DNA from: Nannocystis bainbridge
GTDB lineage: Bacteria > Myxococcota_A > Polyangia > Nannocystales > Nannocystaceae
Direction: 5' to 3'
DNA length: 64,000 bases
Assembly: GCF_028368995.1 (NCBI RefSeq)
Contig: NZ_JAQNDL010000003.1
Coordinates: 1,696,001-1,760,000 of the forward strand
The translations under genes were made by a program, and so were the position numbers. Positions within the stretch are counted from its first letter, which is position 1. Each line of letters starts with the position of its first letter. Under the pieces are notes generated by a model. It had not been told where the DNA came from and ran no database searches. It saw nothing but the letters and a program-made list of their open reading frames with translations. Shown one piece after another: positions 3,279 to 62,697 of the stretch.

Positions 3279-3338
3279 CACATGTCCGATCGACCATGCT
3301 CGACACGACATGTCCTCATGGACATGTCCTAAACGACA
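3279..3338. repeat. 14-bp-phased TGTC-N6-GACA array (4 units)
   Basis: TGTC 3283, TGCT 3297, TGTC 3311, TGTC 3325; GACA at 3307, 3321, 3335. Confidence 0.85.
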
Positions 3339-3672
3339 TAAAATGCGCGAAGCCGATCCTGCACCCGGGTCGAGGTTCGGGACCGCCCGCGCGTTGGCTC
3401 CCGGTGGGACCGCCGCACCGTCCGGCCGCGCGCGAGCGGGGTCCTCGCGGATGAAATGGCGGGCAGGGGTGTGGGGTAGATCTCCGCGGCGCCAGCCCTG
3501 GGCGCCGTTCGGCGGGGTCGTTCGTTCGCCCGACAGGAGCAGGTCCGACGCAGCCCGGCAGGCCGGGTCGGGCTCGGGCTAGTATCCTTGTCACGTGCGC
3601 CGGACCGCCGCCGACCCGACCTGACGCGCGCTCCTGCGACCTCCCACCGCGCCCCCCTCGCGGCCCTCGACG

Positions 3673-6060
3673 ATGTCCCCTCCCAAGATCCCCTCCGTGG
3701 TGGTTCGCGGCCTCGAGCCCGAGGCCGCGGTCAGCTCGATCGCGCGCGACCGGCCGTCCCAGCCGCCGTGGTCGCGGATCTTGCTCGGCCTCGCGGTCGC
3801 GGGGCCGGCGCTGTGGCTCGGTGGGGTGCCGTCGATCGTGGTCCCGGGCTTCTGCGCGCTGGTGCTGGCGCTGTGGATCCGCCTGTGCACGCGCAGCGAG
3901 CAGCCGCTGCGCGTGCCGTCGGGCGCCTTCATCGGCCTGTTCGCCGCCGGGCTGACGCTGCTGCAGTGGATGCCGCTGCCGCTGTTCCTGCGCGAGCTGG
4001 TGGCCCCGGGCCTGACCGCGCGGGTCGGCGCGGCGCTGGCCGACAGCGGCGCGAGCCCGTGGCCGGGGCTGTCACCTGTCCCCGGGGACAGCGCGCTGGA
4101 GGCCGCGCGCCTGCTCGCGCTCACCGGCCTGTTCGTCGGCGCGGCCCAGCTGTCGTGGCGCGTCAGCGCCGGCCTGGTCGCGCTGGCCGGCTCGCTGGTG
4201 GCGCTGATCGGCCTGGCGCAGGCGGCGTTCGGCCTCGAGGCGATCTACGGGCTTTATCAGCCGCTGCAGGTCGACCCGACGGTCACGCCGGCGCTGCTGA
4301 CGACCTTCGTCAACGCCAACCACCAGGCCGGCCTGTTCCTGCTCGGGATCTTCAGCGCCGGCGCGCTGGCGGTGCACATGCGGCTGCAGGGCCGCACGGC
4401 CACCGACCCGGCGCTGGTCAGCCGCCTGCGCGAGCGCCGATTGGCGGCTCTGGCGGCCCTGGCGATCCAGGGCGCGGCGCTGCTGCTGTCGCTGTCGCGG
4501 GCGGCGATCGTCGCCCTGGCGATCGTCGCTCCGGTGGCGCTCATGCTCGCCTGGCGCAACGGACCTGTCCCTGTGGGCAGGTCGCGCGCGCGCGAGCCGG
4601 AGGGCCGGCTGTGGCTGCAGCGCGGCGCCCTGGCGCTCGGGCTCGGACTGCTCGCGGTGGTGGTCGCGCGCCAGGGCGCGTGGGCCGAGCTGTCGACGCT
4701 GTGGCGCGTCAACGAGGCCGAGACCAAATTTCGCATCGCCTCCGACGCGGTGGCGCTGATCGATCTGTCGCCGGTGCTCGGCGTGGGTCGCGGCGCCTTC
4801 CTCGACCTGTTCCCCGCGGTCGACTCGCGCCCGCTCGGCGTGGTCCACACCCACCTCGAGTCGGCCCCGGCGGCGATGCTCGTCGAGTGGGGCCCGGTCG
4901 GCGGCGGCCTGGTCGCGCTCGGCCTCATCTGGTGGTGGATCGCCGCCGTCTACACCACCGGCAGCGGCCGCCACGTCAGCGCCCGCCGGGTCGCCCTGTG
5001 CGGCCCGCTGGCCCTGGCGATCCACAACCTCGCCGACTTCAACCTCGAGTTCCTCGGCGTCGCCGCGCCGCTGTGCGCCCTCGCTGGCGCGCTGTCCGAG
5101 CGCCGCGGCTTCTTCCGCGCCCCGGCCCGCCCGGCCATCCTCGTCGGCGGCCTCAGCCTCGCCGGCGCGGCCGCGCTGGCGCTGTGGGCCCAGCCGTACA
5201 CCTGGCAGAACCGCACCGCCGGCGACGGGGCGATCGGCGCCGGCGACATGTCCCCCGAGGCAGCCCAGCGGATGCGCCCGCTCGACGCCTCGCTGCACAT
5301 CCTGCTGGCCCAGCGCGCGCTCGAGATCGAGGACTGGGCGCAGGCGCGGGCGCAGGCGACGGTGGCGAGCGAGCTGCAGCCGGCCAACTCCGACGCGTGG
5401 CTGCGGCGGGCCCACGCGGCGCGCGAGCTGGGCGACGCGTCCGAGTCGGCGAGCTCGCTGGCGCGGACGCTGGCGACGATGCGCCACCCGCCCGACCTCG
5501 AGCTGACGCGCTACCTGCTGGGCCGCTACCCCAACGCCGAGGAGCTGGCGCCGTTGATGCCGCAGGAGCTGGCGCCGTGGACCGCGGTGATGGAGTCGCT
5601 GATCGCCGAGGCGCCGGCCTACGCGGCGATCCTCGCCGCGGCACGCAGCCAGGTCGACGGCCGCGAGCCGCCGGTGTTGCACATGCAGGTCCGCCTGGCC
5701 CTCGCGCTCGACAACCCGTCACTCGCGCTGCACTACGCCCGCCTGCTCCGCATGCTCGCGCCGCACGAGGTCCACAGCCACCTGCTGCTGGCCCGCGCGC
5801 TCGAGAGCCAGCGGGTCCCGCGCGAGCGCGAGCTGCAGCACGACCTCGAGGAGGCGCTCGCCCAGGGCCTCGTCGCCGAGCCGGCCCACATCGCCCTGGT
5901 CGAGGAGAAGCTGCTCGGCTCGTACCTGCGCGACGGCCAGCCCGACGCCCTCGCCCGCGCCCGCGACCTGCTGCCGCGCCTGCTGGCCCGACCTGGCGAC
6001 CGCGCCGCGCTGCAGCGCCGCCACGCGCTCGAGCGGGCCCTGGCCCAAGCTGTCCGCTAG
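3673..6060 (+). CDS. O-antigen ligase (Wzy_C)-like membrane protein with C-terminal TPR-like helices
   Basis: Multiple TM segments, TFVNANHQAG, LSLSRAA, PVLGVGRGAF and HTHLES motifs; helical repeat C-terminus. Confidence 0.8.
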   Translation: MSPPKIPSVVVRGLEPEAAVSSIARDRPSQPPWSRILLGLAVAGPALWLGGVPSIVVPGFCALVLALWIRLCTRSEQPLRVPSGAFIGLFAAGLTLLQWMPLPLFLRELVAPGLTARVGAALADSGASPWPGLSPVPGDSALEAARLLALTGLFVGAAQLSWRVSAGLVALAGSLVALIGLAQAAFGLEAIYGLYQPLQVDPTVTPALLTTFVNANHQAGLFLLGIFSAGALAVHMRLQGRTATDPALVSRLRERRLAALAALAIQGAALLLSLSRAAIVALAIVAPVALMLAWRNGPVPVGRSRAREPEGRLWLQRGALALGLGLLAVVVARQGAWAELSTLWRVNEAETKFRIASDAVALIDLSPVLGVGRGAFLDLFPAVDSRPLGVVHTHLESAPAAMLVEWGPVGGGLVALGLIWWWIAAVYTTGSGRHVSARRVALCGPLALAIHNLADFNLEFLGVAAPLCALAGALSERRGFFRAPARPAILVGGLSLAGAAALALWAQPYTWQNRTAGDGAIGAGDMSPEAAQRMRPLDASLHILLAQRALEIEDWAQARAQATVASELQPANSDAWLRRAHAARELGDASESASSLARTLATMRHPPDLELTRYLLGRYPNAEELAPLMPQELAPWTAVMESLIAEAPAYAAILAAARSQVDGREPPVLHMQVRLALALDNPSLALHYARLLRMLAPHEVHSHLLLARALESQRVPRERELQHDLEEALAQGLVAEPAHIALVEEKLLGSYLRDGQPDALARARDLLPRLLARPGDRAALQRRHALERALAQAVR

Positions 6061-6098
6061 GACAGGTCGACCGCGAGGCCGATCATTGACGCAATGAA

Positions 6099-6128
6099 AT
6101 GCCTCTCAGGACATGTCCTGAGAGGCAT
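6099..6128. repeat. Perfect 30-bp palindrome made of two 14-bp units
   Basis: ATGCCTCTCAGGACA|TGTCCTGAGAGGCAT between convergent genes; a further single unit TGTC-CGCTAG-GACA at 6051-6064 overlaps the stop codon. Confidence 0.85.
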
Positions 6129-6333
6129 CTTCAAAGCGAGCGCGCCGACGATCCGGGGAGGTGTCCCGCAGGATGTCTCCACTCAGGAAACTCCGCGGGC
6201 GCAGCTGCGAGTCACCCGCTCGGGCGTTCCGGCCCGCTCGTGCCATCGCGCTGCGCGCCCGCCGAAAGCGCCGAGGGCGGCGCGATCGCTCGCACCGCCC
6301 TCGAATGTGCGGACCTTCCGGCCCGCGCGGGCC

Positions 6334-15209: not shown

Positions 15210-15227
15210 TGTCTCTCGGGACATGTT
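15210..15227. repeat. TGTC-N6-GACA unit
   Basis: TGTC TCTCGG GACA TGTT. Confidence 0.7.
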
Positions 15228-15885: not shown

Positions 15886-17070
15886 CTAGCGCGCCCGGGC
15901 TCGCCGGCGCCGCGCCAGCGCCACGAGCCACAGCGCGGCCCAGCCGGCCCCGGCCCCGCCGCTGCGGCAGCCGCACCCGGCCGGCTCCGTGCCGGTGCCC
16001 GGGGCCGTGGTCGCCGCGCCGCCCGTGCTCGTGCTCGTGCCGTCGCTGCTCCCCGCGGTCGTCGGGTCGTCCCCGCTGGTCCCCGTGGTGGTCTCGCTGT
16101 CTCCGCAGGTCCCGTCGCCGCCGCCCGCCAGGAACGAGCCGCTGTCGCTGCAACCACCGCTCGAGGTCTCGCTCGGCTCCAGCACCGACAGCAGCGACAC
16201 CGGGTACGTCGAATAGGTGCGCTGCATCGGGTCGATGACGTCGACCCGCAACACCACCGAGTCGGGCGCGACCTCCGACGGCGGCGTGAAGGCCAGCGCG
16301 ATCGTCTCGCCGACCAGCGGTTCGCTGACGAACTCCTGCCACTCGAGCGCGTCGGCCAGGGCCCAGTAACCCTTCAGCGTCGAGCCCGGCATCGCCCGCG
16401 CGCAGCCCTCGAGCAGGTACGAATCGCCGGGGAACACGAACGCGCCCTCCGGATTGGTAAGCGCCGCCGCCGGCGGGGCCGAGGCTGGATCGGCGTCGTC
16501 GACCACATGCACCACCCCCGGCCGCCGCGACCAGCGGTTGAGCTCGGGCTCCCACGTATAACCGTCGATGCGCCACGCGCCCGCGGCCAGCCCGGTCGTG
16601 TCCCACACCACCGGCTCGGCCGCCTCGGCCTCGGTGATCGGTCGGCGCGCGTCGTCGGCGGTGATGCGGACGAAGCAATCGGCGTAGAGGCCGTTGGTCT
16701 CGAGCACGTCGTCGTCGCCGATGACCGCGGCGTCGATCATCTTCTCGTCGGCCCAATCGAGCCAGGCGTCGGCGTCGGCCCACGACAGCCACACCGGCGG
16801 CGGCGTCTGCGGGCTGTCGTCGCGGCAGAAGGCGACGAATTGGTGGCGCCGGCTGGTCGGCAATTCGTCGGGGGTGAGGTCGGTGTCGGGATAGGGGATC
16901 GCGTAGTCGAATTGCAGCGTGCTCGACTGGCTGCGATCGATCACCGTCATGCACGGCACGCCGTCGGGCCAGACCACCGGAGTACGCGGGTGGCCGCCGT
17001 TGGCCGCGTGCGCGGCCCCGGGCGCCGCGAGACCGACGAACACGAGCGCGACACGAAGAGGACCTCGCAC
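15886..17070 (-). CDS. Secreted surface protein with MYXO-CTERM-like tail (paralog 1)
   Basis: Signal peptide, T/S/G linker, GCGC + hydrophobic + RRRR C-terminus; GTG start 6 nt after TACACT. Confidence 0.8.
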   Translation of the reverse strand: MRGPLRVALVFVGLAAPGAAHAANGGHPRTPVVWPDGVPCMTVIDRSQSSTLQFDYAIPYPDTDLTPDELPTSRRHQFVAFCRDDSPQTPPPVWLSWADADAWLDWADEKMIDAAVIGDDDVLETNGLYADCFVRITADDARRPITEAEAAEPVVWDTTGLAAGAWRIDGYTWEPELNRWSRRPGVVHVVDDADPASAPPAAALTNPEGAFVFPGDSYLLEGCARAMPGSTLKGYWALADALEWQEFVSEPLVGETIALAFTPPSEVAPDSVVLRVDVIDPMQRTYSTYPVSLLSVLEPSETSSGGCSDSGSFLAGGGDGTCGDSETTTGTSGDDPTTAGSSDGTSTSTGGAATTAPGTGTEPAGCGCRSGGAGAGWAALWLVALARRRRARAR

Positions 17071-17122
17071 GCGGCCAGTGTAGCGCGGGCCCGTCGCCGG
17101 CGCCGCGCGCGGCCCGGGCCGC

Positions 17123-18367: not shown

Positions 18368-18377
18368 CGCCGACAAT

Positions 18378-18578: not shown

Positions 18579-19198
18579 GATCCGCCCCGCTCGGCGGGCG
18601 GCAGGATGAGCTGCTCTTCATGGGCGAGGATCCCGAGCCCCACCGCGAGGCGGGCCGCCAGCATCGTCCGCCCGCTGACCTGCCCGCGCCGCAGCGCCGA
18701 GGCCCCGACCAGCAGGCCGATGCCCCACACCAGCAGCGCCGCCATCTGCGAGCCGCCCTGCAGCAGCGCGAAGCCGATCAGCCCGCTGGCGATCCAGATC
18801 AGCAGCACCATGCGGACCGCGCCCTGGACCGGCTCGCTGGCGTCCGCGGCCTGCCCGGCCACGCGCAGCTCGAACTCGCCCTCGACCACCCGCAGACCGA
18901 TCGAGTCGGGCCCGATCCGCAGGAACCGCAGCATCGGCTTGAGGCTGCGCAGCATCTCCTCGGCCCGCAGCACCGTGCGCCCGCGCAGCACGATCGCCCC
19001 GTCGGCCGGGTCGCGCTCCTGCAGCCCGCGGCGGAACCCCTCGGTGTAGAGGTCGATCGCCGTCTGCCCGACCGGCAGCCCGGCCTCGCGCGCGGCCGCG
19101 ACCTGCAGCGCGTGCTCGTCGCCGCGCCACGGCTGGTCCGTGCGGGCCAGCTGTCCCTTTGAACCTGCCTCTTGCGACATGTCGTTCGAATCATGCAT
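18575..19198 (-). CDS. Hypothetical membrane protein
   Basis: Two C-terminal TM helices; follows coaD. Start 19198 or 19180. Confidence 0.7.
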   Translation of the reverse strand: MHDSNDMSQEAGSKGQLARTDQPWRGDEHALQVAAAREAGLPVGQTAIDLYTEGFRRGLQERDPADGAIVLRGRTVLRAEEMLRSLKPMLRFLRIGPDSIGLRVVEGEFELRVAGQAADASEPVQGAVRMVLLIWIASGLIGFALLQGGSQMAALLVWGIGLLVGASALRRGQVSGRTMLAARLAVGLGILAHEEQLILPPAERGGS

Positions 19199-19217
19199 GA
19201 TCGGACATGTCCTCTCA
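19152..19217. repeat. 14-bp-phased TGTC-N6-GACA array (5 units), overlapping a CDS start
   Basis: TGTC 19152, TGCC 19166, TGTC 19180, TGCA 19194, TGTC 19208. Confidence 0.85.
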
Positions 19218-25499: not shown

Positions 25500-25617
25500 T
25501 CTCCAAACTCACAAAGCGCAATATCGCGCGTCTACACCCCTGCTCGATATCGCGCTGTGCGCGCCGAGGAATCTGTCCTGGCCGCCTTCGCCACCTGTCC
25601 CGAAGGACATCCCGACT

Positions 25618-30741: not shown

Positions 30742-30826
30742 TCGTTCGGACATGCCCTCTCAGACATGCGCTGAAAGGCATGCCCGATCGGACATGCCTG
30801 ATTAGACATGGTCAAACAATCATATC
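30739..30826. repeat. 14-bp-phased TGYC-N6-GACA array (6 units)
   Basis: GACA/GGCA at 30749, 30763, 30777, 30791, 30805, each followed by TG; ATCA at 30819. Confidence 0.9.
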
Positions 30827-32403: not shown

Positions 32404-32463
32404 TGTCCCTCGGGACATGTCCGAAGAACACTGTCTTTACGGGCATGTCCTGTAAGACATGTA
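32404..32463. repeat. 14-bp-phased TGTC-N6-GACA array (4-5 units)
   Basis: TGTC at 32404, 32418, 32432, 32446; TGTA at 32460. Confidence 0.9.
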
Positions 32464-32594
32464 CTGACCTGCATCCGGTTGTTTTGAGGGTTGCCGGCGA
32501 CACACGCTGCGCCGCAGACGACACGCGCTCGCACTGCGGCGAGTCGCGAGCGGCCGCCTGCGCGAGCAGGCCTCGCGTACACTGCGGCGGGGTC

Positions 32595-36265: not shown

Positions 36266-39200
36266 ATGCCCGCCACCGCTCGCCCCCAAGCCCCCGCGTC
36301 CCACGTCGTCCGCGCCGCCCAGGCCCGCCTCGTCGCCCACCTCGGCGAGGCCGACCTCGGCGCCTCGGCCGAGCCGACCCTGACACCCGCCGGCAGCCCC
36401 ACGCGGCTCGCCGACCCGACCTCGTGGCCGGGCCCCTCGCGCGCGCCGCACCAGCCCGCGGACGACGAGCGCTACGAGTTCGGCGAGGCCTTCGCCGCCG
36501 GCGGCCTCGGCGTGGTCCGCCGCGCCCGCGACCGCCGCCTCGGCCGCGACGTCGCCGTCAAGGAGTTGATGCGCACCGACCCGGCCGCCGAGCACCGCTT
36601 CGCGCTCGAGGCGGCGATCACGGCCCGCCTGCAGCACCCCGGCATCGTCCCGCTCTACGACATCGGCCGCCACGCGACCGGCGAGCCGTACTACTGCATG
36701 AAGCTCGTCGAGGGCCAGACGCTCGAGCACGAGATCCGCCGCCGCTCGCAGCCTTACGAGCGGCTGGCGCTGATCGAGCACGTGATCGCGGCCGCCGACG
36801 CCGTCGCCTACGCGCACCGCCACGGGGTCCTCCACCGCGATCTCAAGCCGGCCAACATCCTGGTCGGCGAGCTCGGTGAGGCGGTGGTGATCGATTGGGG
36901 CCTGGCCAAGGACACCACGCAGCCCAGCGCTGACCCGCCCCCGAGCCCGCACGCGCCCACGAGCGGCTTCATCTCGACCGTGACCGAGCACGGCACGGTG
37001 CTCGGCACCCTGCGCTACATGCCGCCGGAGCAGGCCCGCGGCGAGGTCGTCGACGCCCGCGGCGACGTGTTCGCCCTCGGCGCGGTGCTCTACCACGTGC
37101 TCGCCGGTGCCCCGCCCTACGCCGACGTCGACGGCCGCGTGCTCGCCTCGCGCGTGGTCGAGGCCGCGGTCGATGACCTGCGGGAGCGCGCCCCCGAGGC
37201 CCCGCGCGAGCTGGTGGCGATCGCCCAGCGAGCCATGGCCGCGCGCCCCGAAGACCGCTACGCCAGCGCCGAGGCGCTCGCCGAGGACCTGCGCCGCTTC
37301 CTCACCGGCCGCATGGTCGACGCCCACCGCTACTCCGCCGGCGAGGTCGTGCGCCTGTGGCTGCGCCGGCACCGGGCCGCTGTGGGTGTCGCCTCGGCTT
37401 CGCTGGTGGCCCTCGTGGCCGGTGGCGCCTACGCGGTGCAGAACGTCTACCACCAACGCGACGCCGCCGCGGTCGCGCAGGCCCACGCCGAGGCCGCGCG
37501 CGGCGAGGCCGAGTCGGCGCTGGCGACCGCCCGCCAGCAGACCACGGCGTCGCTGCTGGCCCAGGCCCGCGCCGCGCTCAACGGCGACCTCGCCGGCAGC
37601 CTGACCGCGCTGGCGCAGGTCGACCTGTCCGATGAGACATCCGCACGCCGGGCCCGCCTGCTGGCGCTGGCAGCCGAGACCCGCGGGGCGCCGACGCGGA
37701 TCTTGCACGGCCACGCGCGGCCGGTGTCGCAGGTGGTCGCGCTGTCCGACGGCGCGCTGGTCAGCGTCGACGTCGGCGGTGACGTGTGGAAGTGGGACGC
37801 AAAGACCGGGGCCGGGGCGCGCCTGTTCGAGCTGGGCGAGCGCGAGGTGGTCCTGGTCGTGGCCCGCGACGCGCCGATCTTCGCGGCGATCGGCCGCCGC
37901 AGCGCCCGCGTCGAGCGAGCGGGCCATTCGCAGGCGATCGACGTGTCGATGGTCGACCGCGGCGACCACGGGATCCAGCAGTACCGCTGGACGATGTCGG
38001 CCGGCGGCGAGGCGCTGGCGGCCCTCAGCGAGCCGGCCACGTCGAGCGCCGGGTTCGCCGGCGCGCCCGCCTATCGCTGGGACCTGACCCAAGAGCCAGC
38101 CAAGCTCGACGTCGTCCCGGGCACCCGCGGCCGGACCGCGGCCCTCAGCCCCGACGGCCGCACCGTCGCCTACGAGGACGCCGCCCGCGGAGCCTTCCTG
38201 CGCACCGGCGAGCAGTCGCTGGCGACGCCGGCGATCTCCGGCCCGCTCGAGTTCTCGAGCAGCGGCGCGCACCTCGTCAGCTGGGCGGTCGACCAGCCGC
38301 CGCGCCACGTCGCGTACACCCCGGCGACTCAGGAGGTCCACCCGCTCGGGCGCTGGACCCTGGCGATCGCGCCCGACGACCGGGCCCTGGTGCTCGACGT
38401 CGACGACTTCACCGGCATGATCTCGCTGTCGATGCGCTCTCTGGCCGACGCTGCGACGCGCTGGACCGCGACGCCGGTCGAGTCGGGCAACCTCGTCGAG
38501 TGGGGCGACGCGCAGGAGTACGACGTCGTCGTCGACCCGCGCGGCGACAGCCTCGCCGTGCGCACCCCCGATCACTGGCTGCTCGGCTCGCAGACCGACG
38601 GCAGCTTCCCCCGCCGCCTCGACGCCGACAACGCGCGCCACGCCGCCTACGCCGGCGACGGCCGGTTCGCGGTCGCCCACCTCGGCGACATCCACGTGTG
38701 GGAGCCCGCGCCGGTGCCCCCGGCCGCGCAGGGCCTGGCCGGGCTGAACGTCGGCGCCCTGGCGCTCGATGGCCGCCAGGCGATCGTCTACGCCGACCAG
38801 GGCTCGCCCCGCCTTCGGGACATGTTCTCCGGGACATCCACGGCGTCCTGCCACGATCGCCTCACGGTCGAGCAGTTCCTCGACCCCGAGGCCCGGTCGG
38901 CCGTCGGCGGCGGTCGCTCGCTGTTCGTCGACAAGGCCGGCGAGGCCTGCCTCGGCGACGGCGCCGGGCTTCACGAGTTCGCGGTGGGCAAGCCGACCAC
39001 CAGCGTCGCCCTGGCCGACGCCGGCTCCGCGTTCGCGGCCGGCTTCGCCGACGGCACCGTGCTCACCTGGCGCGACGTCGCCGCCACCGCGCGCAAGTGG
39101 GAGCTCGGGGCGCAGGTCGCCGGGCTCGTGCTCACCCGCGCGGGCGACGGCGCGATCGCCTTCACGCCCGCCGGCCAGGTGTTCGCGCTCACCGACGCGG

Positions 39201-39808: not shown

Positions 39809-39813
39809 TGAGC

Positions 39814-39852
39814 CCGTGATGACATGTCCATATGGACATGTCATCACGGACA
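39814..39852. repeat. Perfect 36-bp palindrome / 14-bp-phased array
   Basis: CCGTGATGACATGTCCAT|ATGGACATGTCATCACGG (39814-39849); GACA at 39821, 39835, 39849. Confidence 0.9.
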
Positions 39853-39990
39853 TTCATGCCTCGCCCAATGTCACGATCGCCAGGCGGAGGTCGTCGCGTG
39901 CGACGGCCCCGCCTGCTCGTGTGAACCGGCCGCTGCCTGACAGCAACGACCGCCCGTCCGACCCCCACGCTGCCGTGGCCGCGCTCGCCC

Positions 39991-40506: not shown

Positions 40507-40804
40507 GCTTGAACCTCGCGCGAGAACGTCCGCGCACGACGATCGGCCGCGCCGGCCAGAAGTTGCCGCCGCGACGTGTTTTGCAGCTTAACACGCCGCT
40601 GCGACGATTCGACGGGAGAATGCGCGCACCTCCGGCTGTCACGATCGAGACGTCGGCGCGCGCCTTCCAGGCTCACCCGAGTCGCGTCCGCTCGTCGGCG
40701 CGGCGGCGCGACGCCTCGCTCGCGCGCGCCAGGTCGCGGCCCGGAGGTCGGCCGGCGGCCTCGCAGCGCGGCGACGACGGGCCCTGCCACGGAGCGACCT
40801 CAAG

Positions 40805-40874
40805 AACATGACGTTTCGAACATTATCGAAAGGACATGTCCATGTGAGCATATCCCAAAGGACATGTTCTTCGG
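40805..40874. repeat. 14-bp-phased array (5 units)
   Basis: AACA 40805, AACA 40819, GACA 40833, AGCA 40847, GACA 40861, followed by TGAC/TTAT/TGTC/TATC/TGTT. Confidence 0.85.
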
Positions 40875-41833: not shown

Positions 41834-41844
41834 GGGTTCCGCGC

Positions 41845-42468: not shown

Positions 42469-42510
42469 AGTCCCCAAGGACATGTCCATTCCAACATGTC
42501 CCAAGATTCA
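42469..42510. repeat. 14-bp-phased array (3 units)
   Basis: AGTC 42469, TGTC 42483, TGTC 42497. Confidence 0.8.
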
Positions 42511-42658
42511 TCTCGCGCAATCGCGTCGGTGTGACACCGACGCTCGCTCCGGCCGGCCCCGAAACCCGGTCGCGGCCGCCTCCGGTGGCAGTTGGAGCCA
42601 CGGTTCGCGACAGAACAAAGATTCGGCGCCGCTGCGGCGTCGGGGTTAGGCTGCGCCC

Positions 42659-43342: not shown

Positions 43343-43375
43343 TCGCCGGGGCGCCCCGGCTCTCGTGAGCCCTCA

Positions 43376-43401
43376 GGGACATGTTCTAAAGAACATGTCC
43401 C
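43376..43401. repeat. Palindromic 14-bp-unit element
   Basis: GGGACATGTTCT-AA-AGAACATGTCCC between convergent genes. Confidence 0.85.
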
Positions 43402-43416
43402 ATCATTTCTCTCGCC

Positions 43417-46420: not shown

Positions 46421-47112
46421 TGTTCTCCGCGATCGCTGCCTCTGTTCTTTTGCACATGTCTCTCGCAGCAGGTCTGTTCGGACAGGTGCAAGCACCGACC
46501 GACGGGAGCGTCGCCGTGCCTCCGGCTCCCGCCGCCCCTGCCGATCCCGCAGCGGCCCCGGCCCCGGCCGAGGCCCCCGCCCCGGAAGCGCCGCCCGAAG
46601 CTCCCGCGCCGGCCGTCGAGGCCGCCCCCACGCCGGCGCCGGTCTATGTCCAGCAGGACACGTCCTATCCGCCACCCCCGCCGACGCCCAAGAAGCCGCG
46701 GTTCGTGTTCGCCTTCCTGCCGGGGCCGACCTTCGGCCTCAGCCACCTCCCGTCGGTCAACCTGCCGTTCTTCTTCGGCGGCCGGCTCAAGCACAGCAAC
46801 TGGGCGCTGGGCTTTCAGTTCACGCTCTCGGCCGGCCTCGCCGAGCGCTACTTCTCGGGGCTGCTCACCCACCGCTATCACCTCATGGGCCTGACCCAAT
46901 TCGGCGCGCGCGGCCGCGGCTTCGCCAGCGTCGGCGGCGGCTTCGCCGTCCGCATGTTCTCGCCGATGGTCGAGGTCGAGGGCCGGGTCGGCTTCCGCTT
47001 CGGCAGGCGCGGCGTCGTCGGCGGCATGGTCCGCCTCGGCTACGACTTCGCCCACCGCGAGGGTGCCCCGGTCCCGCAGGTCGGCGCCTTCATCGGCGTC
47101 TGCAACTTCTGA
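46417..47112 (+). CDS. Secreted protein, Pro/Ala linker plus probable small outer-membrane beta-barrel
   Basis: Amphipathic beta-strands, terminal Phe; ATGA overlap with the upstream gene. Confidence 0.7.
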   Translation: MMFSAIAASVLLHMSLAAGLFGQVQAPTDGSVAVPPAPAAPADPAAAPAPAEAPAPEAPPEAPAPAVEAAPTPAPVYVQQDTSYPPPPPTPKKPRFVFAFLPGPTFGLSHLPSVNLPFFFGGRLKHSNWALGFQFTLSAGLAERYFSGLLTHRYHLMGLTQFGARGRGFASVGGGFAVRMFSPMVEVEGRVGFRFGRRGVVGGMVRLGYDFAHREGAPVPQVGAFIGVCNF

Positions 47113-47219
47113 GAGCGACCGCCCGGGCATGGCCGCCGCGCGCGCCATGCCCCAAATCATCTTATTTGGCTTGGCTTGCTGGACAGGCACCGGTCCGTCG
47201 TGGGGCGCCGGCCGGTGCC

Positions 47220-47412
47220 TGTCCTTTCGAACACTTTATGATTGGGAGTTCGTGAACGCTCGCGGGGAATCGCCGACCCGGCGGTTTATGTCCTTTCGGA
47301 CATCTCGCCACCCGCGGACACGGACGTGACGGCGCGCCGCTGCATGTCCTTTCGGACATGCGAAAGCGCCGGTACGGCGTGGCCGTCCGGCGCCTGACCC
47401 TCGGGACATGTC
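47220..47412. repeat. Cluster of TGTC-N6-GACA units (3 x TGTCCTTTCGRACA plus one variant)
   Basis: Units at 47220, 47289, 47345 and 47395 (+TGTC 47409) between convergent genes. Confidence 0.85.
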
Positions 47413-47418
47413 AACCGA

Positions 47419-50400
47419 TCAGGTCGAGAGGAACCAGCTGCTGCCGACGACCGTGCGGACCAGCGCCGCGATCGTCGCCTTCGGGTCCGGGTCGGTCGCC
47501 AGGCGGTAGCCGGGCTCGCGCATGGCAGCGGGCAGCAGCGGGCGGGCCAGGCTGTCGAGCTGCTTCTCGACCTCGCTGGCGATCTTGCCGCGGAGCAGCC
47601 CCGCGAGCACCCCGTCCTTCTCGAGGTCGATGTGGAAGTGGGCGTCGTCGAAGCTGTAGGACACCCCGGCGAACTTGTAGTCGAGCACCGTCGCCCCGTC
47701 GATCTCGATCGGCGGGTCGGCCGTCACCAGCAGGCCGTGCTCGCTGATCCGGACCACCAGCATCGTGTCCGCCGGCAGCAGCACGCGGGCCAGCTTCGAG
47801 TCATAAAGCACGCGGCGGCCCTCGTCGTCGACCGGGAAGCGGTCGAGCACCGCCGCCACCGCCGAATAATCGGACTGCGTCGCGTTCGGCTCGATCCCCG
47901 CCAGCGACTTGCGCACCACCGCTTCGACCAGGGCATTCTCGAGCTGACCGAACTCGCCGAACTGGATCTCGCCCGACTCGAGGTGGTAGCGCGCCCCGTG
48001 GAAATCGACGCGCAGGCGCGGGCCGGGCATGTCGAGCTGCAGCCCGCGCTCGCTCGAGATCGCGGCCTCGCGGCGGTTGGCGCTGACCGTCAGCACGTCG
48101 CCCGGCGCCACGTGGACCCGCACCTGGGCGAACCCGCCGGGCAGCTGCGCCTGCAGCACCGTGATCCGCCCCGGATCCGGCTCGGGCGCCGGCGGCTGCG
48201 GCAAGATCCGCAGGCCTAGCCGCTGCGTCCACGCCGGCATCCGCGGGATCACCAGCATGCGCAGCAGATCGGCCAGCACCTGCTCCGTGCGCGGGCTGAC
48301 CGGCGACGGCTCGCGGTAGTACTTCTCCTCGATCCCCGCCACGCCGACGTGCACCGAGCCGTCGGCGAACCGGTAGGCCGTCTCGTGCAGCGTGAACGAC
48401 GGCATGTCGGCGAACGCCGCCCCGGCCAGGCGGATGCCCTCGGTCGAGCGCAGGGCCACGCCCTCGGCGTCGACGCTCAGCTCGAGCGCGCCGCCCGGGG
48501 CCGTCGTCAGCTCGATCGGACCCCACGAGCTGCTGGCGCCGAAGGCCACCAGCACGTCGTCACCGGCCTCGGTGGTGTGGCGCGCCGGCCAGAACCAGGG
48601 CAGCACGCGGGCCAGCATGCCGCGCACGACGTGGCCGAGCAGCCAGCTGTCGAGCTCGCCCGCCGCCGGCCGCGAGGTCAGCTCGAGCGTGAACGGCATC
48701 AGCGAGATCTTGGCCGCGAGGGCGTCGACGTGGATCCCCAGGTCCGGCATGCGGACCACGCAGCCCTCGCCGAAATCGAGGTGGGCCCCGTCGCGGCGCA
48801 GCTGGACCGCGAACGGGCGCTGGCGGTCGACGTGGATCGTCAGCGGACCGACGACCGGCAGCCCCAGCTCGCCGAGCGGCATCGAGGTCGGCGTCGGCGG
48901 CAGCGGCGGCGGCGGCCAGGCCTGCGGCAGGCCCAGGCGCTCGGCCAGCGCGTGCATGACGATCTTGGGCGTGAAGTGGGCGTGCAGGCGACGGACCAGC
49001 GCGTGCAGCAGCGGACCCGCCGGCGGCTGCGTCACCAGCTCGATCTGCTCGCCGTCGGGGCGCCAGCGGACCGCCTCGACCGCGAACTCGCCGATCAGCG
49101 ACTCGCCGACCGGGCGCACCTGCAGCGGCGCGGTCGCGCCGAGCACCAGCGCGCCGCTGACCCGGGCCACCGTCACCGATGCGCCCGGCGGCAGCGTCAG
49201 ATCGAAGGCGAGGCCGAGCTTCTCGCCGAGGAAGCCGGCGAGGACCTGCCGCAGCACCCAGGTCTTGCTCGGGTCGGCGTCGGGCCACAGCGGCACGACC
49301 TTGCGCAGCAGCGGCAGCGCGAACGCTTCGAGCGCGGCCACCCCGAACGCCTGCAGATAATCACCGGCCGGCGGCGTCGAGTCGATCACCAGCTCGTGCT
49401 TCGGCAGGTCGTAGCGGGCGCTGCGGAGCTCGAGCATCAGCCCGAGGTCGCGCAGGACCAGGAACAAGCCGCGCTCGCTGCGGATCGTCAGCTCGGTCGG
49501 CCCGAGCGAGCCGCCCGCGGTGTCCTGCGGGTCCATGCGCAGCTCGACGCGCCCGAGCACCGGCACCGACAGCCCGAACACCTCGACCGAGAACCGCGCC
49601 AGGCGCTCCTCGTCGAGCTTCGGCCCGCCCTCGCCGCGCATGCCGATCCACTTCGGCGCGCGCGGGGCCCCTTCCTTGCGGGCCAGGCCGGACAGCAAGG
49701 CCTGACCGAACTCGCCGAAGTTCGGGTCGCCGTCGATCTCGAGGGCGCCGTCCTCCCAGCGATAGGCGATCCGCCGCAGCTGCGTCGGCGGCACGTGCCA
49801 GGACCCCGGGAACCCTAGCGACAGCCCGCCCGGGGCGCTCAGCACCAGCGCCTCTTCGGTGTGCCGCAGCTCGACGTACTGGCCGGTCCCGGTGTGCGCG
49901 ACGATCGGCTCGCCGGCGGTCGGCTGACGCCACAGCACGTGCTGCTCGCTGCCGTGGGGCGACGGCAACACGCCGTGGTCGCGCAGCCACGCGGCCGGCA
50001 CGATCGGCGCGAGGTATTGATCGGACACGCGCTGGACCACCGCGTCGAGCAGGGGCCCGAGCGCCGGCTCGGCGCGGAACTCGACGACCGGTTTGTCGTC
50101 GCGGCCCCAGCGGAGCTGCGAGCCCACCAGCCGCAGCTCGGCGAGCTCGGGGAATTGATCGGAGTAGAGGTAGATGCCGCGCGGCGCGTCGATCCGCAGG
50201 CCCTGCTCGTCCTTGATGAAGGCGACGTCGCCGCCGCGATCGGTGGCGACCGCCAGCGAGCTGAACGGCCCCAGCGGGATCGTGAACAGCTTGCGCGTGG
50301 CCTCCGGCGGGTTGTCGGCCGAGATCCGCATGGTCGTCAGCGCGGTCGCCAGCGCCGCCTTGGTGCCCGAGAACAGGCTGGCCGCGCCGCCCTCGCCCTC

Positions 50401-52533: not shown

Positions 52534-52751
52534 GGCCCGTCGCCGGCCAGGGGCAACAAACCACCGCCTGGCGTCCGCTCGTCGCTCTCGGAGAATCGGG
52601 CCGTTAGGGTCCATCGGCGAGTCGTCGCTCCCGGATCGAGGCCCGTCACCCGCCAGGGGGCAACGAACCATCGCCCGGCGTCGACGCGTCGATCGCGGAG
52701 AACTCGATCAGGTCGGTAGGGCCGATCGGCGAGTCGTCGCTCCCGGCTCGA
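52534..52751. repeat. Imperfect tandem duplication, ~106-112 bp x2
   Basis: Units start GGCCCGTC at 52534 and 52640; both contain GGGGCAAC, GGAGAA and ATCGGCGAGTCGTCGCTCCCGG. Confidence 0.8.
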
Positions 52752-52776: not shown

Positions 52777-52794
52777 TGTCTCTTGGGACAGGTC
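52777..52794. repeat. TGTC-N6-GACA unit
   Basis: TGTC TCTTGG GACA GGTC in an AT-rich patch. Confidence 0.7.
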
Positions 52795-53939: not shown

Positions 53940-55178
53940 TCAGCGAGCCCGCCGAGACTTCCCGCGCTTGCTTTTGGGCGCTGCCGCCTCGAGCTCGCTC
54001 GCCGCGGCCGTCCGCGCCTCCTCGGCCTCCTCGGCCTGCGAGCGCGCCGCCTCGGCTACGCGCTCCGCCTTGTCCGCGCGTTGCCTCGCCGCCTCGGCCG
54101 CGCGTTCGGCCGTTCGCGCCGCGCGTTCGGCCGCTCGCGCCGCCGTCTCGGCGCGCTTCGCCTGCTGCGCCTGACGCTTCGCCTCTCGCGTCGCCTTCTC
54201 GAGCGCGCTGCGCAGGGTCTCCAGCGCCTTGCGCTCGGCTTGCTCACTGCGCCGGCGCTCCGCCTGCTCGGCCTTCTCGCGCCGGCGCTGTTCGGCGCTC
54301 TCGGCCGCGCGCCCCGCCTTCTCCGCCGCCCGTGCCGCCTTCTCCGCTGACCGGTCGACGCGACGGGCCGGCGGCTTCGCCCGCCCGCGCTTCGTCCCGG
54401 CCTTCGCCCCGCGCTTCCCTCGCGCCGGCTTCGCGACCTCCTCGTCCTCTTCCTCCGCGCGCTCCGCCTTCGCCCCACGCTTCCCTCGCGCCGGCTTCGC
54501 TTCCTCCTCGTCCTCCTCTTCCTCCGCTCGCTCCGCCTCCGCCCCACGCTTCCCTCGCGCCGGCTTCGCTACCTCCTCGTCCTCCTCTTCCTCCGCTCGC
54601 TCCGCCTTCGCCCCACGCTTCCCTCGCGCCGGCTCCGCTTCCTCCTCGCGCACCGCCCCGCCGGCGCGCGCCTCCAGCATCTGCATCACGTCCGCGACAT
54701 CGGCCGGCTCGAGCTCGGTCGCCAGCGTCCCGCGGCGCAGCAGCTCGCGTTCGTGCTCGCTGGCCGTCGGCGCCGATTGCAGGGTGATGCGAATGCTGTC
54801 GAGGTGGTCGCCGGGCGTGCGCACGCCCGCCTCTGCCAGCACGTTGATCGCCCGCTGCAGCAGCTCCCACACCACGTCGTGGTGCGCCTGCATCGCCGCG
54901 CGCAGCCCCGCGGCCCCGTGGGCCTCGCGCAGGCGTTCGCCGGCGCGCAGCAGCGCCTCCATGCGCGCCGGTTCGCGGCGGGCCAGTTGATTGACCGTCC
55001 ACACCGCCGTGCTCGGCTTGCGCAGCGCCTTGACCCGCGTCGCCCCGGCGCTGTCACCCGCCGCACGCAGTTGTTTGGCCAGCGCGTCGCGTTCGGCGGT
55101 GAACTCGTCCAGCGGCGCGGCGTACAGCGCCTCGAGCCCGGCCGTCGCCTCGTCGTCGCTGTTCGCCCGCCGCGCCAT
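53940..55178 (-). CDS. Hypothetical protein with helical N-domain and charged repeat/coiled-coil tail
   Basis: LYAAPLDEFTAERDALAK...LRKPSTAVWTVNQLAR; 23-aa repeats KPARGKRGAKAERAEEEEDEEVA. Confidence 0.8.
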   Translation of the reverse strand: MARRANSDDEATAGLEALYAAPLDEFTAERDALAKQLRAAGDSAGATRVKALRKPSTAVWTVNQLARREPARMEALLRAGERLREAHGAAGLRAAMQAHHDVVWELLQRAINVLAEAGVRTPGDHLDSIRITLQSAPTASEHERELLRRGTLATELEPADVADVMQMLEARAGGAVREEEAEPARGKRGAKAERAEEEEDEEVAKPARGKRGAEAERAEEEEDEEEAKPARGKRGAKAERAEEEDEEVAKPARGKRGAKAGTKRGRAKPPARRVDRSAEKAARAAEKAGRAAESAEQRRREKAEQAERRRSEQAERKALETLRSALEKATREAKRQAQQAKRAETAARAAERAARTAERAAEAARQRADKAERVAEAARSQAEEAEEARTAAASELEAAAPKSKRGKSRRAR

Positions 55179-61318: not shown

Positions 61319-61748
61319 GCACGCCGTGGGTTGCACGCAATCGGAGTCGCGGCCAATCGATCCGGTGTGATTCGCCGCGACCCGACGATGCAGCCGCAAA
61401 CTTCCTTTTAAAAGGGGAGCCCTGCGAGGCGCAGGCGCAGAATGCGCGGTTTCGCGCTCCTTCTGAATTGGGCGATCGCATGCCCCGGGAATCGGCGCAT
61501 TCGGCGCCACTCCGCAGAAATCATCACACCCTCGAATCGACGCCGAGCCCGCTCTCGTCGCAAATGTCCAGGGTATTTCCTCGTCATCGAATCATCATAC
61601 CGGCCTCGACCGATTCGCGGCGGTCGCCGCCTGCGCCGACGCGGGCGCGCGGACGCCACCTCTGCTCCGGCGGCGCCTCCTGCTCCAGAGGTTCGCCTCG
61701 AGGTTGCCGCCTCGACCCTCGCCGTCAACCTGAGCGACGGAGGCCGCC

Positions 61749-62630
61749 TTGCGCATTCATCACCTCAACTGTGGAACCATGTGCCCCTGGGGCGGGCGGC
61801 TGATGGGGAAGCCCGCCGACGAGCCCGGCCCGGCCCGGCTGACCTGCCACTGTCTGCTGCTCGAGACGGACCGCGGCCTGGTCCTCGTCGACACCGGCCT
61901 CGGCCTCGAGGACATCCGGGACCCGGTGCCTCGCCTCAGCCGCTTCTTCGTCGGCATGATGCGGCCCCGCTTCGACGAGCACGAGACGGCGGTGCGGCAG
62001 GTCGAGCGCCTCGGCTTCTCGCGCGGCGACGTGCGCCACATCCTCCTGACCCACCTGGACTTCGACCACGCCGGCGGGCTCGCCGACTTCCCGCACGCCC
62101 AGGTACATCTGCTCGCCGACGAGGCTCACGCCGCCCAGCGGCGGGCCAGCCCGCTCGCCCGCGGCCGCTACCGCCCGCAGCAGTGGGGGACGGCCGGCGC
62201 GTGGCAGACCTACGCGCCGAGCGAGGGCGAGGAGTGGCTCGGCTTCGCGTGCGTGCGAGCGCTGGTGGGCCTGCCGCCGGAGATCTTGCTGGTCCCGCTG
62301 GTCGGCCACACCGAGGGCCACGCGGGCGTGGCGGTGCACACCGACGAAGGCTGGCTGCTGCACGCCGGCGACGCGTACTTCTACCGCGGCGAGCTGAACG
62401 CCGAGCACCCGCGCTGCCCGGTCGGGCTGCGCGCCTACCAGACGATGATGGAGGTCGACCGACGAGCCCGCCTCGCCAATCAACAGCGCCTGCGCGACCT
62501 GGTGTATCAGCACGGCGAGGCGGTCCGCGTGCTGTGTGCCCACGACCCGGTCGAGTTCGAGACCTGGGCCGCCCGCAGCCCGTACGGCCAATCCCCGCAC
62601 CCGCGCGCGCCCGACCTCGGCGCGGGCTGA
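61749..62630 (+). CDS. MBL-fold metallo-hydrolase
   Basis: HHLNCGTM, THLDFDHAGG, GHTEGH, HAGDA, CAHDP; TTG start after GGAGG. Confidence 0.93.
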   Translation: MRIHHLNCGTMCPWGGRLMGKPADEPGPARLTCHCLLLETDRGLVLVDTGLGLEDIRDPVPRLSRFFVGMMRPRFDEHETAVRQVERLGFSRGDVRHILLTHLDFDHAGGLADFPHAQVHLLADEAHAAQRRASPLARGRYRPQQWGTAGAWQTYAPSEGEEWLGFACVRALVGLPPEILLVPLVGHTEGHAGVAVHTDEGWLLHAGDAYFYRGELNAEHPRCPVGLRAYQTMMEVDRRARLANQQRLRDLVYQHGEAVRVLCAHDPVEFETWAARSPYGQSPHPRAPDLGAG

Positions 62631-62641
62631 GCCGGCGGTCT

Positions 62642-62697
62642 CGCAAAACGTCCTTTGTGACATGTTATTAAAAGCACGCTACAAAGGACGTTTTGCG
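62642..62697. repeat. 17-bp inverted repeat / degenerate 14-bp-phased array
   Basis: CGCAAAACGTCCTTTGT...ACAAAGGACGTTTTGCG; CGTC 62649, GACA-TGTT 62659, AGCA 62673, GACG 62687. Confidence 0.8.

Follow-up and report, generated by a model that had tools for sequence, protein, structure and literature searches.

Phased TGYCC-N4-GGRCA arrays of Nannocystis, apparently an undescribed relative of REP-type repeats, probably mark gene ends for a putative sequence-specific protein

Arrays in the 64-kb window

The window analysed here is a stretch of 64,000 nucleotides from the soil myxobacterium Nannocystis bainbridge (assembly GCF_028368995.1, contig NZ_JAQNDL010000003.1, positions 1,696,001 to 1,760,000) that carries copies of a 14-bp inverted repeat, TGYCC-N4-GGRCA (fuller consensus TGYCC-nWWn-GGRCA). 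The units abut head to tail with a gap of 0, so that at every junction GGRCA is followed directly by TGYCC, with CATG as the core, and arrays consist of 2 to 11 such cores. The initial annotation of this DNA had described phased TGTC/GACA arrays with freely varying 6-bp spacers. The arrays are real: the window holds 45 units with at most one mismatch, a count that none of 100 dinucleotide shuffles reached (10.3 ± 3.3, maximum 18), and the excess in the genome is far beyond chance. However, the true spacer length is 4 bp, the outer two of the six letters being a conserved C and G, and the two central positions are not free to vary, being 63–65 % A/T as against about 28 % in the genome.

A 4-core array with a terminal half-site (3278..3338) adjoins a group II intron insertion, and the syntenic place is occupied by an array in four of four relatives, in which both the spacers and the number of units differ. 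The single unit TGTCC-N4-GGACA at 6051..6064 overlaps the stop codon of the ORF at 3673–6060, its right half-site region being retained in four relatives. It is followed by a 3-core array (6096..6133) that forms a perfect extended palindrome with mutually reverse-complementary spacers; since this array was not found syntenically in relatives G010, G005 and G007, it was either gained here or lost there. Further along lie a single unit at 15210..15223, retained in G010, G005 and G007, two blocks of 2 cores each where two minus-strand ORFs meet (19152..19217), kept in four of four relatives, and a single unit at 25596..25609 for which no counterpart was seen in the relatives. The 5-core array at 30748..30813 begins 7 bp past the stop of the ORF at 30001–30741, and G010, G005 and G007 carry arrays of 4–5 units there whose spacers are unalignable. 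The 4-unit array at 32404..32464, which begins 2 bp past the stop of the ORF at 31605–32402, is orthologous unit for unit in four relatives, with differing spacers and with the degenerate second unit kept in all; orthologous arrays of this kind bear out the earlier statement that phase is retained at degenerate units.

The Ser/Thr kinase ORF at 36239–39808 contains a 2-core copy within its coding sequence (38814..38841), the motif DNA of which is identical or nearly so in five species with diverged flanking codons, and 6 bp past its stop there is a 3-core array (39814..39857). The first two cores of the latter, together with their spacers, form a 16-bp perfect hairpin, and 2–3-core arrays occupy the same place in four of four relatives. 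A 5-core array at 40804..40869 has arrays nearby in G010 and G001 that do not correspond unit for unit, and two cores with a half-site at 42469..42510 are matched syntenically by 2–3 cores in four of four relatives. A 2-core hairpin after the stop of the ORF at 43004–43342 (43376..43401), flagged as terminator-like by a simple scan, is present in this genome only when compared with the relatives. The degenerate array of 3–4 units at 46443..46488, which follows the ORF at 45557–46420, has CAGG-type junctions, and it is kept in four of four relatives, deviant junctions included. A further single unit lies at 52777..52790.

The sites that had been placed at 3279, 6099, 19152, 30739, 32404, 39814, 40805, 42469, 43376 and 46443 are thus phased arrays, whereas those at 6051, 15210, 25596 and 52777 are single units. 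The stretch 47220..47412 is not one array but resolves into four separate single units (47220, 47289, 47345 and 47395, together spanning 47220..47408) that lie among GC-rich hairpins and vary among relatives. Likewise, the stretch 62642..62697 is not a phased array but a different object, an inverted repeat (hairpin) with 16-bp arms that lies after the ORF at 61779–62630 and holds one core-like word.

Phasing and placement across the genome

The genome (11.05 Mb, 71.5 % GC, five contigs) contains 956 occurrences of GGACATGTCC compared with 9.5 expected, and the 14-bp peak in site spacing that had been predicted was found, with 557 pairs of ACATGT spaced 14 bp apart and only 2 pairs at each of 13 and 15 bp. 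The series continues with 172, 141 and 69 pairs at 28, 42 and 56 bp (remaining distances, 0–17 pairs up to 41 bp and 2–16 beyond), and for CATG the corresponding pairs number 3736 at 14 bp, 72 at 13 bp and 262 at 15 bp. TGYCC-N4-GGRCA occurs 2828 times in the genome, compared with 23–93 for other spacer lengths within 0–15, and GGRCA-N0-TGYCC 1771 times, compared with 27–84 for gaps of 1–13 and 15; a gap of 14, which represents the next in-phase unit, was found 1107 times. Solitary copies make up 1158 of the 2828 units but only 182 of the 1771 junction cores, and at array termini just the proximal half-site is retained. There are 1186 arrays with at least three cores in the whole genome, and contig C5 alone carries 67 real arrays where two order-3 Markov simulations gave 0 and 1. 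Arrays are present on all five contigs at 5–45 per 250 kb, with no array-free domain and with higher density on contigs C3 and C4.

Complementarity of the arms does not extend past the 14-bp unit, and arm positions are nearly independent: the R/Y position shows Watson–Crick pairing of 0.498 where 0.460 is expected, an excess of about 4 points that is small but real (roughly z=4.5 by hand calculation). Neighbouring spacers are identical in 88 of 1708 comparisons (about 15 expected) and are reverse-complementary at lag 2 in 45 cases (about 10 expected), some arrays being extended perfect palindromes. The array flanks contain no T-run or U-tract and have background composition, and no Rfam family was matched at the arrays.

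Gene positions were derived with our own crude GC3-based ORF caller, for which stops are reliable and starts less so. Arrays lie directly behind stop codons, chiefly between convergent genes, and often fill the whole spacer. The median distance from array to stop codon is 14 bp, with 606 of 1018 arrays falling between −10 and +20 bp, and 934 of the 8169 genes called carry such a cap. Density is about 1.8 per kb in convergent spacers, 0.08 per kb in divergent spacers and 0.02 per kb in coding DNA, the 1186 arrays being divided into 549 convergent, 428 tandem, 49 divergent and 160 (about 13 %) coding. In tandem spacers the array begins 20 bp past the stop and ends 174 bp ahead of the next start, with 328 of 428 closer to the stop. 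The earlier view that arrays occur regardless of gene orientation is therefore wrong for promoters, array density per kb in divergent spacers being about 20-fold below that in convergent ones, and the same depletion upholds the companion view that they are not a set of promoter operators. In-CDS arrays translate to linker peptides rich in G, A, S and P, and 134 of the 160 stand in an open frame with coding-like GC3 on both sides.

Conservation and taxonomic range

Arrays were present in nine of ten genomes of Nannocystis and in five of seven from a second genus of the family, and none were found in 55 genomes representing 15 further genera of that family. A search of 185,579 species genomes gave 78 array matches, of which 75 were to Nannocystis, Nannocystaceae or Myxococcales records. 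Samples of 100 kb from three other genera contained no comparable phased inverted repeat, whatever its sequence.

When 30 arrays from other Nannocystis records were considered, 22 matched a syntenic array of at least three cores in this genome and 28 one of at least two, unit number differing between orthologous arrays. Position, phase and half-sites are kept in related species while the spacers are almost randomised (CATG identity 0.92–0.99; spacer identity 0.44 with a null of 0.35), confirming the expectation that phase but not spacers would be conserved. Deviant units are kept unit for unit in five species, which argues against homogenisation. Indeed, since half-sites, phase and unit-specific deviations are kept despite near-saturated spacers, the cores are conserved site by site. 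Judged from these comparisons, purifying selection maintains the half-sites as well as the spacing, both the 4 bp within units and the absence of a gap at junctions, and the spacer letters drift.

Interpretation of the arrays

We consider it very probable that the arrays are a selected, lineage-specific, REP-like family of gene-end repeats. The initial annotation had called the motif undescribed and, in keeping with this, a full-text literature search found no paper describing phased TGYCC-N4-GGRCA arrays. It is an evenly balanced question, weighed here from sequence statistics, whether the arrays act on DNA through a putative sequence-specific protein that would be dimeric. The near-independence of the arms, the lack of extended complementarity and of loop bias, the A/T-rich spacer centre and the lack of excess at 13- and 15-bp neighbours all suggest that sequence rather than structure is read. 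The cooperative dimer track that had been proposed fits best with the strict N4/N0 spacing, the independent half-sites and the near absence of compensatory change, the binding protein itself being putative. Each unit would then be an operator-like site for a putative sequence-specific dimeric DNA-binding protein, with one dimer per 14 bp and each dimer rotated by about 120 degrees from the previous one, so that three dimers would cover four helical turns and the array would bear a short nucleoprotein coat at the gene end. From position alone, we infer that this coat would act locally, as a stop or an insulator for transcription and supercoiling between neighbouring units, and would not constitute a chromosome-wide domain code; the gene-end distribution on all contigs corresponds to a REP/BIME-type pattern rather than to that of macrodomain or partition sites. 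Observations that count against a protein are the strong predicted RNA folding of the arrays, the extended perfect palindromes among them, the small excess of arm complementarity and the tightness of gene-end anchoring, which is as expected of an RNA 3'-end element.

Pseudomonas REPs are mostly extragenic, lie after stops and are favoured between convergent genes. Like the REP/BIME elements of enterobacteria and pseudomonads, the arrays are palindromic repeats that are short, present in many copies and specific to a species or genus; they lie mainly outside genes, past stops, with a preference for convergent pairs, are often clustered and can fold. Passages of the REP/BIME literature propose local action on termination, mRNA stability and supercoiling (10.64898/2026.03.23.713779, PMC3733652, PMC1525189). 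However, the Nannocystis unit is 14 bp long with 5-bp arms where REPs measure 20–40 nt, its copies abut without linkers in strict 14-bp phase and fit the consensus per half-site rather than as hairpin copies, and the GTAG/CGTC tag is absent from the unit consensus. A search for Y1/RAYT genes gave no match in this genome but did in the control genomes. Omega heptads, ParR/parC and the MetJ met-boxes, phased iterons of plasmid partition/repressor proteins, are repeats of words in exact register, intolerant of indels and coated cooperatively by dimers, the 7-bp omega step equalling one half-site of the 14-bp unit. The Nannocystis words also repeat in exact register, but a replicon carries one or a few such iteron arrays, next to the genes under their control, whereas some 1200 arrays are distributed chromosome-wide at gene 3' ends.

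High-GC intrinsic terminators, which work both ways between convergent genes, resemble the arrays in their position directly past stops and in their strong predicted fold. Unlike these terminators, the arrays have no T-run, their loop and junction lengths are fixed, and their sequence, not pairing alone, is conserved genome-wide; they are also AT-richer than the GC-rich hairpins of array-free spacers. Rickettsia palindromic elements, among other repeats, insert into coding sequence while keeping the frame, and some arrays similarly lie in frame inside ORFs, but the one looked at in detail, in a histidine kinase, lies within a variable linker and is no clean insertion. CdbA of Myxococcus xanthus, a ribbon-helix-helix protein associated with the nucleoid, has hundreds of sites with a sequence preference, and text passages of that report give its motif as a GC-rich direct repeat, 4 bp apart (PMC7156744). 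Set apart by this text description, the Nannocystis unit is an AT-richer inverted repeat, and the same passages report neither 14-bp phasing nor a gene-end bias for CdbA (PMC7156744).

A serious rival, possible though in our view doubtful, is that the arrays are REP-like hairpins of transcribed RNA (or of single-stranded DNA) with no dedicated DNA-binding protein, serving as bidirectional terminators and/or as blocks to 3'-exonucleases that stabilise upstream mRNA. The anchoring after stop codons and within convergent spacers is consistent with this, as are strong predicted RNA folding on both strands (z=−5.2 against shuffles for arrays, −2.0 for array-free convergent spacers), perfect long hairpins such as those at 39814 and 6099, the GC-rich hairpins that array-free convergent spacers bear instead, and the dual role as terminator and stabiliser that passages of a 2026 preprint give to an E. 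coli REP (10.64898/2026.03.23.713779). Of the 491 array-bearing convergent spacers, 188 have no other segment of at least 24 nt, leaving the array as the sole candidate structure. Where residual spacer remains, however, other hairpins usually accompany the array (median window energy of residual spacer −21.4 with an array and −23.1 without, compared with −18.8 in coding DNA). Furthermore, compensatory covariation is almost absent, the excess of G:U over A:C is of similar degree in control pairing, a loop of exactly 4 and a junction of exactly 0 are stricter than hairpins require, single units have stems of just 5 bp without extension, and the lack of an adjacent T-run and the open coding-like frames of most in-CDS arrays, where a terminator would be harmful, also count against such a role. 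Because an inverted repeat is identical on both strands, half-site strand symmetry cannot separate DNA from RNA recognition. The loop letters alone discriminate, and these are unbiased with respect to transcription direction (for example, GAAA 32 and TTTC 23; TTCG 29 and CGAA 26), with no particular tetraloop favoured on the strand that is transcribed.

Beside recognition by a protein, which we favour, it seems unlikely that the arrays are a non-functional selfish or neutral minisatellite, generated and kept by replication slippage and template switching between self-complementary units and accumulating where harmless. The order of locations (convergent, tandem, divergent, coding) is that predicted by tolerance alone, and the excess of identical adjacent spacers, the differing unit numbers of orthologous arrays and obviously recent amplifications such as that at C3:1085839 point the same way. 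Yet the conservation of half-sites, phase and unit-specific deviations across species, the lack of excess of 13- and 15-bp variants and the manner in which tandem-spacer arrays hug the stop codon, instead of spreading through the promoter-free part, all count against this reading, and no mobilising enzyme was found in the genome, which has few insertion sequences. The analogy drawn originally with matS/MatP, SlmA, Noc and parS, that is, a chromosome-organisation code marking domains or excluding or attracting the division or segregation machinery, is in our estimation very improbable. The sites are indeed palindromic and numerous, their density is uneven, and C3, one of the denser contigs, holds by our own reading a GC-skew switch as expected at a terminus. 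Nevertheless, thousands of sites are spread over all five contigs and leave no domain empty, gene ends dictate their placement on a scale of 10–20 bp, arrays are limited to two genera while segregation systems are widely conserved, and copy number is 1–2 orders of magnitude above that of known systems of the matS, Noc or parS type. We would give least credence of all to the arrays being operators in the regulon of an ordinary transcription factor; the 5-4-5 inverted repeat has the classical operator shape, a layout shared by FNR-type boxes, but the sites run to thousands, are depleted from promoter-bearing spacers and, for the majority of the 49 'divergent' arrays, lie hundreds of bp away from both starts.

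The phased unit and its taxonomic range

The window is rich in Ser/Thr kinase genes and belongs to a genome of 11.05 Mb in 5 contigs (C1 to C5) with a GC content of 71.5%; at the window sites that were read directly, words such as GGACATGTCC recur at 14-bp steps. Genome-wide, GGACATGTCC occurs in 956 copies as against 9.5 expected from base composition, and pairs of ACATGT in the whole genome number 557 at a distance of 14 bp but only 2 at each of the neighbouring distances, 13 and 15 bp; the peak is echoed at 28, 42, 56 and 70 bp. For CATG, 3736 pairs fall at 14 bp as against 72 one base pair closer and 262 one base pair farther apart, the last being codon-periodic background. Arrays were called by deriving a profile from in-phase cores, i.e. 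the CATG-centred junctions of abutting units, and then chaining matches that keep the 14-bp register. The result was 1629 two-core arrays and a total of 1186 arrays with at least three cores across the whole genome (456 with three, 301 with four, 245 with five, 143 with six and 41 with more than six, the longest having 11). Contig C5 has 67 arrays of at least three cores whereas two order-3 Markov simulations of it gave 0 and 1, and the window has 45 copies of the unit at no more than one mismatch compared with 10.3 ± 3.3 in shuffles. The 14-bp pair peak, together with the excess over simulations and shuffles, confirms the existence of the phased arrays that the initial annotation had described.

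The unit had been given as TGTC-N6-GACA with freely varying spacers, which is right in kind, except that conservation extends over 5 bp of each arm, which leaves a spacer of 4 bp (TGYCC-N4-GGRCA), and that the spacers are not free in composition, their two central letters being 63–65% A/T against 28% in the genome. TGYCC and GGRCA are found at exactly 4 bp 2828 times, every other spacing within 0–15 giving 23–93 occurrences, and the everted pair GGRCA/TGYCC is found 1771 times without a gap, 1107 times at the gap of 14 that corresponds to the next in-phase unit and 27–84 times at gaps of 1–13 and 15. The arrays are therefore exact-register tandem recognition words. Solitary inverted repeats make up 1158 of the 2828 (41%), only 182 of the 1771 cores (10%) are without a partner half-site, and array termini keep the proximal half-site only.

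The pattern is narrowly distributed. A scan of 185,579 species, each represented by a single genome, with a query of two perfect in-register cores recovered 78 loci; apart from 3 strays, all of them (75) belong to records labelled Nannocystis, Nannocystaceae or Myxococcales. Within the genus, nine of ten other genomes carry the pattern (the tenth being 64% complete), and five of seven genomes of one other genus of the family are positive with low counts. Arrays were absent from 55 genomes of 15 other genera of the family, the reversed-pattern control gave zero in all family genomes scanned, and 100-kb samples of three other genera contained no short inverted repeats in phase, whatever their sequence. 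Viral contigs are essentially array-free (4 matches among 2.9 million). With arrays limited to two genera, genome comparison becomes a clean route to any factor that reads them, and in practical terms the arrays are a genus marker.

Placement at gene ends and evolutionary turnover

Genes were called with our own GC3-based ORF caller, for which stops are reliable and starts crude. The 1186 arrays comprise 549 in convergent spacers (0.30 Mb), 428 in tandem spacers (1.07 Mb), 49 in divergent spacers (0.58 Mb) and 160 in ORFs (about 9 Mb), so that 1026 lie outside called ORFs. The distance from array edge to stop codon has a median of 14 bp, with 606 of 1018 edges within −10 to +20 bp; in tandem spacers the array starts a median of 20 bp past the upstream stop and ends 174 bp before the next start, the stop being the nearer of the two in 328 of 428 cases. 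In divergent spacers the arrays are mostly hundreds of base pairs from starts, and no binder candidate emerged when one was sought through the divergent-spacer arrays of this genome. An array of at least three cores is present at −15 to +40 bp of the stop in 934 of 8169 called genes, and when the unit score is relaxed, roughly one convergent spacer in two contains at least two units. In 188 of 491 array-bearing convergent spacers the array leaves no other segment of at least 24 nt, and elsewhere arrays coexist with other hairpins, a mixed outcome for the idea that arrays replace hairpins. Density ranges from 5 to 45 arrays per 250 kb with every contig covered and no empty domain, although a mild ori/ter gradient could escape detection in an assembly of 5 unordered contigs. 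This distribution is of the REP type and unlike that of macrodomain, nucleoid-occlusion or partition sites.

The arrays were compared by synteny with four congeners, in which gene identity is about 75–94% and the same stop codons are followed directly by arrays. Those at 32404 and 46443 are orthologous unit by unit; their spacers differ freely, and deviant units (e.g. a CATT-type second core or CAGG junctions) are retained by every one of the five species. Such persistence of unit-specific deviations argues for site-by-site purifying selection rather than homogenization. Comparison of 33 pairs of orthologous arrays gave an identity of 0.92–0.99 at CATG, 0.63–0.81 in the outer arm and 0.44 in the spacers, for which the null value, from spacers of non-orthologous arrays aligned by the same procedure, is 0.35. 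The initial annotation had expected related genomes to keep phase and not spacers, and they do; spacers are near saturation, with half-sites and register held. Strict phase combined with drifting spacers is a rare and clear case of selection on geometry over sequence.

Turnover is nevertheless visible, since unit number varies between species at orthologous arrays and the arrays at 6099 and 43376 are private to this genome. Among 30 arrays of other Nannocystis records with mappable flanks, the syntenic place in this genome has at least three cores in 22 cases, two cores in 6 and none in 2. Identical neighbours among the spacers number 88 in 1708 comparisons, compared with about 15 expected, and a few arrays have plainly been amplified in recent times.

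Of the 160 arrays in ORFs, which with other arrays are a cause of assembly and annotation artefacts, 134 are in frames that are coding-like on both sides, and they translate to G/A/S/P-rich linkers. In a histidine kinase gene (C1:186081-188120) the array sits in a variable linker; the four orthologues nearest to it also have the array, whereas in two distant orthologues it has diverged. Its origin as a clean insertion was rejected, as neither clean boundaries nor a duplication were visible. Within the window, one kinase gene contains a two-core copy that five species have conserved. We also observed that C4:257950-259500, a stretch of 81% GC without an ORF call and apparently coding, is itself a long repeat, every copy of which bears the same four-unit array with CAGG-type junctions; larger repeats can therefore passively amplify arrays.

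Candidate readers of the arrays and known systems

The main rival to recognition by a protein is that the arrays act at the RNA level, as a REP-like terminator or stabilizer. Their predicted fold is strong (z = −5.2, n = 120 arrays), giving a stable stem-loop, and a minority of arrays are perfect extended palindromes. However, the arms vary almost independently, with R/Y-position pairing of 0.498 where 0.460 would be expected; complementarity stops at the 14-bp unit boundary; in tandem spacers the loop letters have no preference for the transcribed strand; the loop and junction lengths of the units are invariant; and no T/U-run follows the stem, the flanks being at background (A 0.12 and T 0.12 at −34 to −15 of 2372 array ends). 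The large share of in-ORF copies in coding-like frames also speaks against a hairpin. An excess of G:U over A:C was about equal in control pairing and is uninformative, and a negative association within cores was set aside as probably an artefact of the summed-score threshold used to select them. A simple terminator scan of 29000–48000 found 7 terminator-like sites; the array stem itself forms one only at 43376, and two others borrow unit letters as a T-rich tail.

Several of these tests point to sequence, not structure, being recognized. An inverted repeat of 5-4-5 layout whose centre is rich in A/T is a classical form for an operator bound by a dimer, and independent arms, confined complementarity, lack of loop-strand bias, fixed lengths, lack of a T-run and coding-frame copies together favour a dimeric DNA-binding protein. 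Our favoured reading, based on the pattern of the sites, is that a putative sequence-specific dimer coats the arrays at gene ends, in which case the 14-bp step would rotate successive dimers by about 120 degrees and three units would span four helical turns. The dimeric-protein track of the initial annotation is thus plausible; the chromosome-organization code attached to it is unsupported, arrays being on all contigs at gene ends. We would go further only as a speculation that we think rather unlikely to hold, namely that a candidate lineage-specific protein polymerizes on the sites in their 14-bp phase and so plugs the ends of genes with protein, and that these plugs would be a bidirectional transcription stop or insulator, by analogy a bacterial counterpart of mTERF- or Reb1-type roadblock termination that evolved in one myxobacterial lineage. 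Such a system would operate beside RNA hairpin terminators or replace them. If a dedicated protein does read the arrays, Nannocystis would naturally mark the ends of thousands of genes with a simple, strictly spaced DNA word, and the separation of convergent units could be tested in very GC-rich bacteria with few canonical terminators. If the RNA reading were true, the arrays would be a REP-like family of unusual modular build without RAYT, informative on how repeats of this sort originate and persist.

As palindromic repeats interspersed at gene 3' ends, the arrays come closest to REP/BIME among known kinds, with which they share high-copy extragenic palindromes, location at gene 3' ends with convergent pairs favoured and, likely, a local role. 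They differ in being 14-bp modules in strict register that are read by half-site and lack RAYT. REPs are imperfect hairpins of 20–40 nt that bear a GTAG or CGTC tag (PMC3733652 for the tag); the present unit measures 14 bp, and neither tag is present in the unit or flank profiles. The Y1/RAYT transposase (PF01797) had 0 matches in this genome, which is 90% complete by marker genes, and matches in 6 of 14 control genomes. With intrinsic terminators the arrays share a stem-loop but lack the T/U-run. The sites matS, parS, SlmA-SBS and Noc-NBS number in the tens and are confined to or excluded from domains, whereas arrays are on all contigs, and the motif is unlike what we take to be the consensus sites of MatP, ParB, SlmA or Noc. 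Exact-register tandem words are shared with the omega, ParR and MetJ iterons, but these occur once or a few times beside the cognate operon whereas the arrays are dispersed and number about 1200. We consider the arrays a strong candidate for a new DNA–protein recognition system.

Other candidates were rejected. A MITE, in which terminal inverted repeats enclose an internal segment and the target site is duplicated, does not fit, given the lack of an internal segment, the low proportion of identical neighbouring spacers and the few long repeats in the genome; long repeats and IS elements are few, and none is linked to arrays. The core matches the p53 half-site RRRCATGYYY, yet no p53-type DNA-binding domain was found even at E ≤ 1, and the resemblance is treated as coincidence. 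CdbA, a Myxococcus nucleoid protein, was dismissed because its site is described in PMC7156744 as a GC-rich direct repeat. Full-text searches, which covered the main text of freely accessible papers, found the motif only in p53 papers, with no bacterial description of it and nothing on Nannocystis repeats. As a side observation, a preprint on the bacterial histone HBb (10.1101/2023.02.26.530074) lists Nannocystis exedens, Enhygromyxa and Plesiocystis as having histone-fold homologues.

Other features of the window and genome

A search of the window with Rfam 15 at gathering score matched nothing at arrays, its sole match being a group II intron on the minus strand at 1132–3181 (RF00029 and RF02003, at 1132–1235 and 2952–3087), whose ORF at 1259–2386 encodes the domains RVT_1 and GIIM. 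The genome contains the intron three times (on C2, at C1:3393915 and at C3:906534), the copies being about 99% identical. The syntenic gap is a few hundred base pairs in three congeners and about 2.2 kb here, which makes the intron a recent insertion; targeting of arrays by it was rejected, the other two copies not adjoining arrays.

The feature at 62642–62697, initially listed among the arrays or units, is not a phased array but a perfect inverted repeat with 16-bp arms and a 21-nt loop, directly 3' of an ORF at 61779–62630, and looks like a terminator-type hairpin. An ankyrin-repeat ORF of 137 aa (31019–31432) lies between two conserved genes in this genome only, and its relatives sit elsewhere in other Nannocystis, e.g. 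at C2:10068011 of the congener G007 with 86% identity. Two adjacent paralogous ORFs of 363 and 417 aa (15886–18376; about 70% BLAST cross-matches) have extra tandem copies in relatives, up to four in the congener G001. Larger tandem repeats are located at 54400–54648, 52534–52751 and 23402–23650, namely 69 bp × 3.7, 107 bp × 2 and, within a kinase ORF (20967–23933), proline-rich coding repeats of 24, 27, 30 and 48 bp. Contigs from three soil-metagenome sets, all fragmentary, were compared with 39000–48000; in one contig, 61 other letters take the place of 42424–42521, a segment that includes an array. The contig ends C1:4515656-4536530, C2:3021502-3033751 and C5:707284-720618 recur elsewhere in the genome and are probably assembly overlaps or rRNA-type repeats. 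Finally, ACTAGT is present in 20 copies compared with 581 expected, which indicates strong avoidance of CTAG in this genome.
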